Shown here in pieces: positions 46,148 through 57,868 of a stretch of 64,000 nucleotides of DNA. Position 1 is the stretch's first letter; each line of letters opens with the position of its first letter. The notes under the pieces are model-generated. The model saw nothing but the letters and a program-made list of their open reading frames with translations. It was not told the origin of the DNA and did no database searches. A program made the translations under genes and the position numbers. This DNA is from Escherichia phage vB_Eco_J-01, in sequence record PQ438393.1. One strand, written 5' to 3'.

Positions 46148-46184
46148 CAATGAGAATAATTATCATTTGCATTATCATTCAATG
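46148..46184. promoter_or_regulatory. Fur-box-like hexamer repeat cluster
   Basis: AATGAGAATAATTATCATTTGCATTATCATT. Confidence 0.35.
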
Positions 46185-46346
46185 ACTTATAAGACTTTTG
46201 ATTATTTTCTGAGCAAGCAAGGCACTACTCACAACAAAACAGATAAATTCTAAGTAAATCAATGGCTTGGCAAGTCTAAACATCTATATACACCTTGCCA
46301 AATGAAATGATCTGGCGTGAAATAGTGCCGCCCGTGGAAGATAGCT

Positions 46347-46365
46347 GATAATGATTATCATTTGC
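46347..46365. promoter_or_regulatory. Fur-box-like site
   Basis: GATAATGATTATCATTTGC versus consensus GATAATGATAATCATTATC. Confidence 0.4.
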
Positions 46366-46811
46366 ATACTTTCTGTACTATAAAACCGACTAAAAATCAA
46401 GATAATTCTACTTTATTGCGCTTTTAAGAAAGTAGGCTCAACAAATAAGGGAATACATTACAACAAATGACAATAGTTAGGGCAACAAATAACAACAAAT
46501 AGTAAGTTATATGGGGCAATAGTATGAAAAATCATCTATTCAGATATAAATAATTTTGCGCAATAGTAGTAATATTTTCTTGACAAGAAAGATTTCTTTG
46601 TGTTCACATAGCGCCCCCTGGAAGGTGGCGCATTATGATCATCAATGTCATTATTCACCATGTTTATTATTGCATAGCTTATTACTTAGCTTATATTATA
46701 GCCAATGTTCCAAACATTAGCTAATAATAACGCACCGCAACAATGTAAGGGATACAATATACCATGTATATTGTTGCGCTTGCAGTTGTTGCAAGCTACA
46801 TAAGCACAAAT

Positions 46812-46834
46812 AATAACTATCGGTGATAGTTATT
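46812..46834. repeat. perfect 10 bp inverted repeat with 3 nt spacer
   Basis: AATAACTATC ggt GATAGTTATT. Confidence 0.6.
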
Positions 46835-47239
46835 ATGTGGGGTGTGTAGTTGCGTTATTATTAGCCGCCTATGTGTCCGGCATAGGCTGCTAATGATACG
46901 CTTGCGAATTATATTTCTTGTTATAGTTATTGTATGAAATGATTACTTAGGTAATAGATAGGAAGGTAAAGGTTAGATCATAAATAGATAGGATATGAAT
47001 TATTTAGTAATGTTACTAACGATTTAATAGTTACTTTGTGCAATAATTCAATAGATTATAGTTATAGTTTTAAAGGTTAGATAGATTATATTTAGCTTGG
47101 TAATGATTTATATTAGTTATTGTTGTTTAATATAAGGTTATCAATGAGATAGTAACAGTAAGTTATAAATAAAGGTGAGATAATTAGCTTTAATTTAGTT
47201 AGATAGCTTATTATTTTATAGGTTAGATGGTCTTAAGTT

Positions 47240-47314
47240 AAGAATGATTATCATTATTACATTATTCAGTTTATTGCATAAATAATCAGTTATAAATGAG
47301 AATGATTATTATTT
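47240..47314. promoter_or_regulatory. two Fur-box-like sites
   Basis: AAGAATGATTATCATTATT and AAATGAGAATGATTATTATTT. Confidence 0.35.
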
Positions 47315-47526
47315 AAGAGGAAAGACAAGAAAAAGGCTGTTTTTGCCAGATAGTTGCATGAAGAAATTAAAAACAAGCGGTCTAAAACACGTTGTAAGCG
47401 CCTTATGATCTTCATGGTATGGTTGTTCATCTGCTCCTTGATTAGCTCGATACCGCGATCTATTCACTTTTTTCGGTGAACGTTTTTGATAGGTAAAAGC
47501 TATCATCTTTATTGAGGTAAAAAGAA

Positions 47527-47545
47527 AGGGCGCTTTGTGCGCCCT
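47527..47545 (-). terminator. intrinsic terminator closing the - strand cassette array
   Basis: AGGGCGCTTTGTGCGCCCT; on - strand followed by TTCTTTTT. Confidence 0.65.
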
Positions 47546-47560
47546 GGTGTGAAGTGTCAT

Positions 47561-47944
47561 TTACTTATAAGCTGGATCGTTTGTTATATCAATCCAATGA
47601 GCTAAATTAATTTTATTTTTTGCTTTCATTTTCTCGATCAAACGTTCTGCTAATGTCTCGGAACGGATATAAACATAATCGCTAAAATCTTGCCCGGTTT
47701 CTTCGTCGATCATCTCGCGATATTCAATTTTCCCGATAAACGCATGATTCAGCGCATAAGTTTTACCCGTGTACCAGTTGTGTAAATGGATCTCGCATTT
47801 ATAATCGTCGCTATAACCTTCGGTTGTTCTAACTTCAACCAGATCGCCTTTAAACACTGATAAGCACCACATAGGATCACGATCTACAGCGCCGTTAAAA
47901 TCTTTACCGTTTACAGTCGCTGCCAGGTTGATGATATTGCTCAT
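47561..47944 (-). CDS. hypothetical protein
   Basis: ORF track 47561..48019; ATG 47944 after GAGGAA; the listed N-terminus would overlap the promoter. Confidence 0.5.
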   Translation of the reverse strand: MSNIINLAATVNGKDFNGAVDRDPMWCLSVFKGDLVEVRTTEGYSDDYKCEIHLHNWYTGKTYALNHAFIGKIEYREMIDEETGQDFSDYVYIRSETLAERLIEKMKAKNKINLAHWIDITNDPAYK

Positions 47945-47976
47945 GGTGATTCCTCGTTTACCGTTTAAAATGATTT

Positions 47977-48019
47977 GCCCTACGTGGTAAATAATAGTGT
48001 AAGCGTGATCCGGTGTCAA
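47977..48019 (-). promoter_or_regulatory. sigma70-like promoter with CCACGTAGG box (no GC hairpin)
   Basis: TTGACA, 17 nt spacer, TATTAT, TTACCACGTAGG. Confidence 0.5.
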
Positions 48020-48369
48020 TAGGTAGAATTGTAAAGATTTGATAGTTTATACCTTTGATGTTTTGTTGTTTAATAGGTATTAGCTATTAATATATAGCAG
48101 GATCTTCCGGTGATTATCTTCCCCTGTCCCCAGGTGCCGCCCGTTCCATAATAATAATCAAAAGCAGGATAAAAGGCAAGATAAAAAGCAAATTATTTCC
48201 TATGTGCTTTAAACGCCTTAGATAGCTTTATAACAGCTTTTTCATCCTGGTAAGGTGATTAATCATTCCTACCTTGTTTAAGCGGTTACAGTCGGTTTTA
48301 GATGGTTTTACGCCACCTTTACGCCTATTCTTTACGTGTCGCTTCCATTGTGAAAAAAGAATACAAAAA

Positions 48370-48394
48370 AGGGCGCTTAGTGCGCCCCTTTCTT
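48370..48394. terminator. terminator hairpin with flanking A and T runs
   Basis: GGGCGCTTAGTGCGCCC. Confidence 0.6.
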
Positions 48395-48404
48395 TTACCG
48401 TGTA

Positions 48405-48794
48405 TTAATATTCGTTATAATACATCGCTAACTTTTCATCAAAAGCCGATTGACGATCTGCATACTCCCAGAGCATTTCCTGATCTTGTTGTTCGTCATC
48501 GTCCATCATATTAAATTGCGCAACCTCCTGGTAAGTGATCGCCATATTATAACGATAGGTGATCTCTTCTGCGATGTTTTCCGGTAAAGATGATTCTACA
48601 CTGTCTAACAGCATATTTAACATCATTTCAGCCGCTTTTTCATCATTGTCAAAGCAGTAAGCAGACCATGCGGCATGATGTTTATTCTTCATCTTTGCAA
48701 TCAAGCCATTGACTAAAAAAGGCGCTACGTTGTTAACGATACCCTGTAAAGATTGGAATTTTTCAACGTTAGAAACAGAAACCAGGTTGCGCAT
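48405..48794 (-). CDS. hypothetical acidic protein
   Basis: ORF track 48405..48830; ATG 48794 after the cassette hairpin and AAAGG RBS. Confidence 0.5.
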   Translation of the reverse strand: MRNLVSVSNVEKFQSLQGIVNNVAPFLVNGLIAKMKNKHHAAWSAYCFDNDEKAAEMMLNMLLDSVESSLPENIAEEITYRYNMAITYQEVAQFNMMDDDEQQDQEMLWEYADRQSAFDEKLAMYYNEY

Positions 48795-56777: not shown

Positions 56778-56801
56778 GATTATTTCTCTCTTCTGTTATG
56801 A

Positions 56802-56857
56802 GCGGCACTATTGCCGCCCTATGTGATAAACTTTACCAGAATAAAAAACGTTGTCAA
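56802..56857 (-). promoter_or_regulatory. PeSL-like cassette with variant hairpin
   Basis: TTGACA, 16 nt, TAAAGT, TTATCACATAGG, GCGGCA-ATAG-TGCCGC. Confidence 0.55.
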
Positions 56858-56865
56858 GAATATTT

Positions 56866-56961
56866 TTAGAAAATAACAACCGCCACTACAATCCAAAATG
56901 GAACGGCTAGAATGATAGCGTTAATCGTTCCAACCGTCAAGCTGTTTTCTTTCTTGATCAT
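56866..56961 (-). CDS. small membrane peptide, 31 aa (not in ORF track)
   Basis: ATG after AAAAGG; MIKKENSLTVGTINAIILAVPFWIVVAVVIF. Confidence 0.4.
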   Translation of the reverse strand: MIKKENSLTVGTINAIILAVPFWIVVAVVIF

Positions 56962-57088
56962 CGTTATCAACCTTTTATAAGTAATGTTATTGTGACGGTG
57001 GATTGTGGAGATCCTCACCTTTGCCCGTCCTACATTGCGCCCTCCTTTTGTTTATTGTCGTTGTGCCTCGCCCCCCTCGACAAGATGA

Positions 57089-57117
57089 ATAATACGCTAC
57101 CAGGTGAGGAACGTCAA
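57089..57117 (-). promoter_or_regulatory. sigma70-like promoter heading the - strand array
   Basis: TTGACG, 17 nt, TATTAT. Confidence 0.45.
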
Positions 57118-57152
57118 CCATTTTTTTAATCTTTTTTCATTTCTTTTTTTGC

Positions 57153-57181
57153 TTGCTATCTATAAAGGAAACGGCTATTAT
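57153..57181 (+). promoter_or_regulatory. divergent sigma70-like promoter
   Basis: TTGCTA, 17 nt, TATTAT. Confidence 0.4.
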
Positions 57182-57228
57182 CTTTCTACCGCGCCAACCA
57201 GGGCGCACATCAAAGAAAGGGCGATACC

Positions 57229-57495
57229 ATGACAAATACTACTTTACACCTTATGCACTCATTGGGCTGGCAAGGCGGCACGGTGCACCAGGTAGCAAGC
57301 GCAACGGGCTTAAAGGTCGAAACCGTTCTCAACCTGGGCGATCATAAGGTGGAAGAAATAGAAAACTTTGATCCGTTCGCTGATGGTTATCTATGGGCTT
57401 GCAGTGGCGGCGGGGAAAGCAAGATCCCGCCAGGGGCGCGGGGCGACATGTATTTTTGGTTAGGTGTCCTTTCCTGGCAAGAAAACAAAAAATAA
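57229..57495 (+). CDS. hypothetical protein in GC-rich island
   Basis: ORF track 88 aa; chosen over overlapping frames; local GC clearly above flanks. Confidence 0.45.
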   Translation: MTNTTLHLMHSLGWQGGTVHQVASATGLKVETVLNLGDHKVEEIENFDPFADGYLWACSGGGESKIPPGARGDMYFWLGVLSWQENKK

Positions 57496-57497
57496 TC

Positions 57498-57526
57498 TTG
57501 ACAAGCCCAGGGATCGGGCTTATACT
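57498..57526 (+). promoter_or_regulatory. sigma70-like promoter driving an ORF-less segment
   Basis: TTGACA, 17 nt, TATACT immediately after gene stop. Confidence 0.5.
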
Positions 57527-57534
57527 GTTTTACA

Positions 57535-57755
57535 TACAGAAGAGGAAACGCCACCCCCACGGCGTAAAGGCGGGGCTAACATACCAGGGGGCACTGGTTG
57601 GAAGGTTGATCGCCGGTAGCTCGTCCAAAATAAATTTGTAAAGAAATGTAAAGATAAAAATAATCGCTTGCTTTTGTTGTTGGTTATGCTATTCTTATTA
57701 TATGGCGAGGGGACACGGGAGCGCGAGACAAACACCGCCCCTGCGCGTTATTTTC
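57535..57755 (+). ncRNA. candidate structured non-coding transcript (speculative)
   Basis: GC-rich, several short inverted repeats, no ORF with plausible start; ends before repeat field. Confidence 0.25.
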
Positions 57756-57756
57756 T

Positions 57757-57868
57757 AAATGAGAAAAATTCTCATTTGCTAATGATTCTCATTCTCTTAA
57801 TGAGAATGATTATCACTTACATACTTAAATGATAATGATTCTCATTTACAAATGAGAATGATTATCAT
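57757..57868. promoter_or_regulatory. cluster of four Fur-box-like sites
   Basis: AAATGAGAAAAATTCTCATTT; AATGATTCTCATTCTCTTAATGAGAATGATTATCAC; AAATGATAATGATTCTCATTT; AAATGAGAATGATTATCAT. Confidence 0.4.

Follow-up and report, generated by a model that had tools for sequence, protein, structure and literature searches.

We analyzed a 64,000-nucleotide stretch of the genome of Escherichia phage vB_Eco_J-01 (PQ438393.1; this whole stretch is referred to below as the window), in which palindromic repeats resembling the enterobacterial Fur box are concentrated in two non-coding regions, at 46148–47314 and 57757–57868. The window belongs to a phi92-like virulent E. coli myovirus (Justusliebigvirus, Stephanstirmvirinae), a group whose genomes measure ~146–150 kb, and both non-coding stretches are 93–98% identical to those of other such phages. 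The minus strand carries every gene around both clusters of sites. Between the clusters there is a block of ~25 small genes (47991–57117, minus strand), all of which are transcribed towards the genome end. Beyond the second cluster lie a set of triple direct repeats, a NADAR gene and a gene for a predicted endonuclease, whereas the first cluster begins within the direct terminal repeat (DTR) of the virion DNA.

Fur-box matches in the two non-coding regions

The initial annotation of this DNA had counted at least eight copies of the repeats, placed them only in the two non-coding regions, likened them to the Fur box and proposed that they be scored with a Fur weight matrix. A pattern for the quoted repeats, AATGAKWATNATTMTCATT, with up to two mismatches allowed, recovers seven palindromic sites in the window as against 0.15 expected, and among the matches to the 7-1-7 core TGATAATNATTATCA, one is perfect (46346–46360) and four have a single mismatch. 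One of the quoted sequences, GATAATGATTATCATTTGC, is found at 46347–46365 and provides the best 19-mer match to the classical Fur box GATAATGATAATCATTATC, with 17 of 19 positions identical; another, AATGAGAATGATTATCAT, occurs exactly at 57851 and with one difference at 57799 (AATGAGAATGATTATCAC).

We then scored the window with a matrix trained on 12 DNase-footprinted operators of E. coli K-12, none of the training sequences being from a phage. The operator coordinates were those in Table 3 of Chen et al. 2007 (PMC2189734), the sequence was taken from NC_000913.3, and offsets were corrected by means of the annotated gene starts. The 12 footprints were aligned de novo by maximizing the information content of a palindromic 19-mer: the best alignment yielded the consensus ATTGATAATCATTATCAAT, which is the 9-1-9 single-dimer form, and the second-best one recovered the classical GATAATGATAATCATTATC. 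The training operators themselves score 12.6–26.9 bits on the full matrix (8.6–25.9 bits in leave-one-out scoring), and across 43 kb of K-12 DNA every match of at least 14 bits falls within the footprinted regions, a result that is partly circular because the same regions trained the matrix.

On this matrix, the window displays 12 matches of at least 16 bits (16.2–26.4), which amount to nine separate sites, as three sites each have a second match shifted by 6 bp. By comparison, 200 dinucleotide shuffles of the window gave a mean of 0.83 such matches and a maximum of four, and local shuffles set the six matches of the first non-coding region against 0.085 expected and the five of the second against 0.03. 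The next best site in the 64 kb reaches 15.9 bits (at 33367), and the phage sites score as high as the best chromosomal operators. Both the minimum count of the initial annotation and its claim that the repeats are restricted to the two non-coding regions are thus borne out, all matches of at least 16 bits being located there.

The first region shows an uneven spread, with its sites drawn together in three tight groups (46149–46173, 46344–46368 and 47237–47313). Natural Fur clusters are composed of sites 6 bp apart (Chen et al., PMC2189734), and precisely this offset separates the members of three phage pairs (46149/46155, 46344/46350 and 47237/47243). The first pair (46149–46167, 24.9 bits; 46155–46173, 19.6 bits) is situated 54 bp inside the DTR edge and is kept in the phages phi92, alia, ZCKP1 and nepoznato. 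The second (46344–46362, 16.2 bits; 46350–46368, 18.3 bits) holds the perfect 7-1-7 core TGATAATGATTATCA and is ~70 bp inside the other DTR edge. The third pair, which was detected with the matrix (47237–47255, 18.8 bits; 47243–47261, 16.2 bits), has counterparts in Phapecoctavirus and is followed by a single box of 24.9 bits (47295–47313). The second region is made up of a five-box array (57758–57869), with units at 57758 (16.9 bits), 57775 (20.8), 57799 (20.9), 57828 (26.4) and 57851 (23.7) that are separate from each other and 17–29 bp apart.

Outside phages, the exact 19-mer AATGAGAATGATTATCATT is present in more than 120 bacterial species, ranging from Proteobacteria to Firmicutes, Cyanobacteria and Chloroflexi. 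Among 95 open reading frames (ORFs) flanking it are those for nine TonB-dependent receptors, six iron-type ABC binding proteins, five Fur proteins, five EfeO-like cupredoxins, four ZnuA-type proteins and two siderophore monooxygenases; these bacterial neighbors are a typical Fur regulon. The proposed likeness to Fur boxes is therefore upheld by three features, namely the scores on the footprinted-operator matrix, the 6-bp-shifted overlaps and the iron-gene context of the 19-mer in bacteria. Judging from these features of the sequence, we consider it likely that Fur of the host occupies the sites. A tblastn search with E. coli Fur detected no homologue (E > 1), either in the window or in a close relative whose genome is complete.

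Placement at the terminal repeat and around the early genes

The phi92 record (NC_023693.1) has an annotated left and right terminal repeat (LTR/RTR) of 343 bp. The reverse complement of the phi92 right end aligns from position 46096 of the window at 92% identity, which places the DTR at 46096–46438, with the virion DNA starting at 46096 in the orientation of the window. A DTR of 342 bp was reported with PhageTerm for phage BME3 of the same genus (PMC12210895). Four of the 12 matches, i.e., the first two pairs, fall inside the 343-bp DTR and thus in DNA that forms the physical ends; the sites at 47237–47313 and 57758–57869 are far from it, an argument against a role in packaging alone. Halfway from one DTR pair to the other, ~100 bp from each, there is a site that matches the IHF consensus, and is identified by that match only (AATCAATGGCTTG; 46257–46269, plus strand). 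It forms a conserved island across Justusliebigvirus and Phapecoctavirus (81% identity; TATCAATGGTTTG in Phapecoctavirus). Between these two genera, the DTR boxes are 68% identical as against 52% for the rest of the DTR.

Several further features surround the DTR boundary. The DTR edge (...GCTCAACA) is conserved, and the adjoining segment just inside the DTR (46440–46560) is hypervariable among phages that are ~95% identical elsewhere, with the window, alia, phi92 and OZ035770 all differing from each other. The stretch 46700–46900 is devoid of ORFs and contains perfect 15-nt inverted repeats (46720–46734 with 46851–46865) that are 116 nt apart, in addition to a palindrome at 46807–46839 (AATAATAACTATC..GATAGTTATTAT) and a hairpin at 46863–46893. 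More repeats of the type TAAAGGTTAGAT extend from 46967 to 47228.

The block of small genes at 47991–57117 features ~20 near-consensus sigma-70 promoters (TTGACA-16/17-TAnnnT), one per small gene and many with an extended -10 element, at a density far above that of the flanking regions. Because of these promoters before its small genes, we predict this 9-kb block to be transcribed by the host polymerase and to constitute the immediate-early, host-takeover region. No promoter matching at least 10 of 12 consensus positions overlaps a Fur box on either strand, the overlaps being limited to weak matches of 8–9/12. The sites at 47237–47313 lie past the last early gene, and the five-box array is ~640 bp upstream of the first early promoter and 11.66 kb from the DNA end, a distance equal to 7.9% of a genome as long as that of phi92. 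Taken together, the sites stand on both sides of the early block and within the DTR, and not on the promoters.

Directly left of the array there is a strong plus-strand promoter (TTGACA-17-TATACT; 57498–57526) followed by a non-coding element of ~90 nt (GAAACGCCACCCC..GGCGGGGCTAAC..GATCGCCGGTAG); promoter and element lie within 57498–57660 (57498–57625 in the narrower delimitation). The element is 84–87% identical in Seunavirus, Certrevirus and Mydovirus phages, contains no coding sequence and has no Rfam match. One record carries a tRNA-Ile annotation under the match to it, and ARAGORN finds no tRNA in the window. The folding stability of a 230-nt plus-strand stretch does not exceed that of its shuffles (z = 0.56), and the 90-nt core, with a single compensatory pair, is too invariant for covariation analysis. 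The element is probably a conserved phage small RNA. To the right of the array are three direct repeats of ~65–75 bp each (57889–58094; TTGAACTTTTCATTTT...AAAACTTTAAATAA), which are annotated as a repeat_region in phage alia and are not sigma-70 promoters. Analogous triple repeats are found in SSE121, CR8, BIS47 and EC152, and a different triple repeat (AAAAATTTTTTCG..GAAAAAATACG..TCGATCGAG) occupies the same place in the Vequintavirinae. Over the palindromes, Rfam searches at gathering and permissive thresholds returned only hairpin-like miRNA noise.

These arrangements recur in related phages to different degrees. In a complete relative (OZ035770.1; 148,442 bp), sites of at least 16 bits are seen only in the same clusters, apart from one isolated site. 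The Phapecoctavirus phages ZCKP1 and nepoznato have sites at all three positions, with different spacers and copy numbers. Three genera of the Vequintavirinae, with phages of Salmonella, Cronobacter and Klebsiella, retain the second module in the order of a strong promoter, the 90-nt element, a second promoter, one to four Fur boxes and three direct repeats of ~70 bp. At the array position, the copy number varies from one to five among the relatives examined, with just one in SSE121. We also considered the second cluster as a site of genome termini, given that the records of several relatives start within ~300 bp of the array, and rejected it: these record starts are uninformative, and that of Enterobacter phage EC152 merely lies inside the triple repeat, no repeat being common to both ends of the record.

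In Pfam searches of ten neighboring ORFs, only Gp30.8, NADAR and CapR+T5orf172 domains were detected. The last belong to a 467-aa protein (58861–60264, minus strand) that combines four CapR-homology repeats with a T5orf172 domain and is listed in phi92 as an endonuclease; its gene adjoins the NADAR gene (58309–58860) on the side facing away from the array and the triple repeats. At the other end of the early block, the Gp30.8-like last early gene (47561–48019) is directly followed by a terminator-like hairpin (47527–47545, minus strand), and the single box at 47295–47313 is ~215 bp beyond this hairpin. The hairpin falls inside an 83-aa ORF (47309–47560, minus strand) that lacks an annotation in both phi92 and alia and is unlikely to be a gene. 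A replication origin at the clusters was likewise rejected, since the cumulative GC skew of a complete relative turns only at switches in transcription direction and shows nothing at the clusters.

Parallels in T5 and in uncultured phages

Sensitive blastn comparisons with T5-like phages aligned the array over 107 bp at 75.7% identity (E = 2e-13, pairwise), with identical 19-mers. The T5 units (AY692264; AATGAGAATCATTATCATT, best score 26.4 bits) are located at 9552–9715, within the annotated injection stop signal (9140–10144). The array ends 34 bp short of the end of the terminal repeat and is succeeded by a hairpin and then by the repeat end with the major nick (9748/9749). It is preceded by a perfect LexA box (CTGTATAAATATACAG; 9411) and by DnaA boxes (9449–9518). 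Three kinds of host-regulator sites are hence found side by side in the injection-stop region of T5, and the same layout is seen in T5_ev212 (LexA box at 9831). Davison's comparative study (10.1101/866236) lists the units among palindromes and direct repeats to which it assigns no function, with no mention of Fur or iron, and the T5 literature that we searched contains no link between these units and Fur.

The resemblance may extend to the setting. The units of T5 Repeat Region 3 (palE–palJ, DRC) are arrayed over ~160 bp in the large untranslated part of the terminal region, at the inner border of the first-expressed genes, and the pre-early genes dmp, A1 and A2 are read towards the end, like the early genes of the present phage. 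In both phages, the position of the array corresponds to 7.9% of the genome. There are also differences: the T5 repeat is 9.7–10.1 kb long and contains the pre-early genes, whereas that of the present phage measures 343 bp; T5 has a single array, whereas the present phage has several clusters, with two pairs inside the DTR and the five-unit array outside it at the early-block border; the LexA box and paired DnaA boxes before the T5 array and the nick site after it are absent here; and two-step injection is established for T5 only.

A second non-coding motif common to T5 and the rV5/phi92 families is the direct repeat TTTGTAAAGAAAYGTAAAGA, which is composed of two TGTAAAGA units 10 bp apart (57636–57656). 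It is invariant in all rV5/phi92-like phages examined and is also present in T5 Repeat Region 1 (AY692264, 5073–5096), with matches of 20–24 bp (E ~0.004–0.009).

In IMG/VR, a 17-mer of the motif occurs in more than 120 viral contigs, and 23 loci have arrays of three to seven separate strong sites, the GC content of the inspected loci being 21–49%. At 11 of 19 array loci that are unrelated to the present phage or T5, a terminase large subunit or portal gene is found at most 3.5 kb away. In one 41-kb contig (IMGVR_UViG_3300025631_000015), the two ends overlap by 113 bp, exactly at an array that opens with a tandem run of seven GAGAAT hexamers, and one end has a different number of hexamers from the other. 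Tandem hexamer lattices are of the kind that Fur is known to bind. Many other matches to the 17-mer are within a few hundred bases of contig ends. The occurrence of the motif in phages with unrelated terminases, as well as in bacteria, points to a host factor rather than a phage-specific protein as its ligand.

Candidate roles of the Fur boxes and their meaning

Weighing placement along with motif identity, we tentatively favor the reading that the repeats are genuine Fur sites at which iron-dependent complexes form at the genome ends, with the function of a boundary or of DNA architecture; this function, taken as a part of the reading, we hold a shade more loosely still. Fe2+-Fur dimers already in the cell would load onto the sites at DNA entry, and later onto each replicated copy, to form iron-dependent nucleoprotein blocks (of Fur and IHF in the DTR), both at the genome ends and where the early block has its inner border. 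These may act as transcription roadblocks or insulators across the DTR and the concatemer junction or, alternatively, as architectural elements that help to handle the DNA ends when the genome enters the cell or is packaged. As a side effect, Fur would be titrated to some extent, and selection would keep near-optimal sites in the end-proximal non-coding DNA. Because no early promoter is overlapped, classical occlusion of the early genes is most likely not the effect. The avoidance of promoters, the placement in the DTR, the T5 parallel and the neighborhood of terminase genes are best fitted by such a boundary role.

Host factors have precedents at packaging sites, such as IHF at lambda cosB and IHF/HU, together with flanking hexamer arrays, at P1 pac. 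As in those systems, short repeats here flank a central IHF-type site within ~350 bp at a future genome end, and by analogy a non-essential host protein that bends or binds DNA could be an accessory. Unlike in lambda and P1, there is no terminase gene near the sites in this phage, and to our knowledge Fur has never been implicated in packaging.

Several observations weigh against boundary or architectural complexes. The spacings between unit centers in the array (17, 24, 29 and 23 bp) follow neither the helical repeat nor the hexamer register, unlike what would be expected of a designed complex, and the range of one to five copies among relatives implies that dosage is not critical. No DnaA or LexA consensus is found in the window at 45800–47400 or 56700–58300, and in T5 a second array on the other side of the pre-early genes is missing, a 16.2-bit site at 231 being all that its repeat holds besides. 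Reliance on a non-essential, iron-gated host protein for essential end-handling would be fragile, and we know of no report of fur as a host factor for T5 or the phages considered here. The non-coding DNA of phages clusters near the termini in any case, such that the location may mark only a tolerance of extra sites, and the case as a whole is built from sequence. A more specific version, in which unrelated phage families recruit Fur and IHF (in T5 also DnaA and LexA) to genome ends and the array is part of an injection-stop/two-step-transfer or end-processing signal, strikes us as a long shot; if true, it would imply a staged, T5-like entry in phi92-like phages and an entry or packaging step gated by host iron.

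The next contender, which we regard as possible though unlikely, is that the sites are classical iron-responsive operators, at which Fe2+-Fur represses or, when bound upstream, activates or anti-silences particular weak promoters near the boxes, such that some of the phage transcripts would follow the iron status of the host. The sites are top-scoring Fur boxes and share with chromosomal and plasmid operators of E. coli (iucA, entC, fepA-fes, fhuF, fecI and sodA) the same 19-bp 9-1-9 motif, score range and 6-bp offsets; iucA has a multi-site cluster of ~100 bp comparable to the phage array, and the fecI site TATGAGAATGGTTATCATT is nearly a phage unit. Candidate promoters can also be named. In the DTR, a -10-like TATAGT on the minus strand (46382–46377) places the second pair at ~+2 to +26 of a transcript towards the gp001 operon; in the Seunavirus SSE121 and the Mydovirus BIS47, a promoter (TTGACA/TTGACT, extended -10) starts 17–21 bp past the last box (dimer at ~-62 to -67); and the palindromes themselves hold promoter-like TTCTCA-18-TATCAT matches. 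At E. coli ftnA, Fe2+-Fur bound at upstream box arrays relieves silencing by H-NS, and anti-silencing in this style would suit the GC content of 29–31% of the box regions. However, cellular operators overlap the -35/-10 elements of the promoter that they regulate, whereas the phage sites avoid strong promoters, with none on any of the ~20 strong early ones, and are of higher average quality than most cellular operators. The candidate promoters are weak (8–9/12) and poorly conserved between genera, the five to twelve perfect sites far exceed the need of a sensor, and the arrays of T5 and the uncultured phages are at terminal repeats or upstream of terminase genes rather than at obvious regulated genes. 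Of the suggestion in the initial annotation that the repeats tie phage gene expression to host iron status, the identity as Fur boxes stands, but control of adjacent expression is no more than a possible role, with ~20 early promoters free of sites and four matches in the DTR.

Still less probable, in our estimate, is that the replicated arrays serve as a decoy or sponge with no role in cis, soaking up Fur to derepress host iron uptake and supply iron-dependent phage enzymes, for instance ribonucleotide reductase. A decoy of this kind would be well served by numerous sites of very high affinity in non-coding DNA that can be spared, and in E. coli Fur is indeed titrated by Fur boxes in multicopy, which is the basis of the FURTA assay; a cell has ~5,000–10,000 molecules of Fur, a number of the same order as that of the sites, at 12 in each of a few hundred genome copies. 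Yet such a sponge fails to explain why the sites are placed in the DTR, flanking an IHF-type site, or by terminase genes. SSE121 retains only one copy, and late derepression of FhuA, its own receptor, would be counter-productive for T5. PAK_P4, a virulent Pseudomonas phage that raises the expression of host iron-uptake genes (PMC5563952), is alone among known phages in inducing the Fur regulon, and its 93 kb are without a Fur box (best score 12.7 bits), so it lends no support to a general DNA-decoy mechanism.

The least likely reading, by a little, is that the palindromes are sites for a phage protein (a terminase small subunit, an end-binding protein or an early regulator) and resemble Fur boxes by coincidence: packaging signals typically take the form of repeat arrays that lie in or beside terminal repeats and ahead of terminase genes, the array is often at contig ends and T5 researchers speak simply of palindromes and direct repeats (10.1101/866236), but the 19-mer is shared by phages with unrelated terminases and GC contents of 21–49%, bacteria of many phyla carry it before iron genes, the tandem GAGAAT run suits Fur and not a dimeric site-specific protein, no ORF or protein is common to the window and the T5-like terminal loci (~20 kb of T5-like sequence), and 11.3 kb separate the array at 57758 from the DTR. 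On the same grounds, and with no Fur homologue detected in the window or the complete relative, we disfavor the other suggestion of the initial annotation, that the repeats are operators for a phage regulator.

Boxes for host regulators have precedents in lytic phages, namely the PhoB boxes and NtcA sites of cyanophages, and the stx1 promoter of Stx1 prophages is regulated by Fur. Those known boxes are single sites on the promoters of auxiliary or toxin genes, whereas the present ones are arrays that lack promoters and lie where the genomes of virulent coliphages end. In the literature searched, we came across no account of Fur boxes in these phages or in T5, nor in the genomes of virulent phages at large, and Fur-box arrays in phage terminal repeats are thus apparently undescribed. 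If Fur does load onto these sites, a metal sensor of the host would have a part in the biology of the genome ends, or in the insulation of the early genes, in several major groups of coliphages that serve as models and in therapy, and the injection-stop palindromes of T5 would gain a concrete candidate ligand. The outcome of infection could then vary with iron, which is scarce in vivo, and this would matter for therapy with phi92-like, Phapecoctavirus and T5-like phages.

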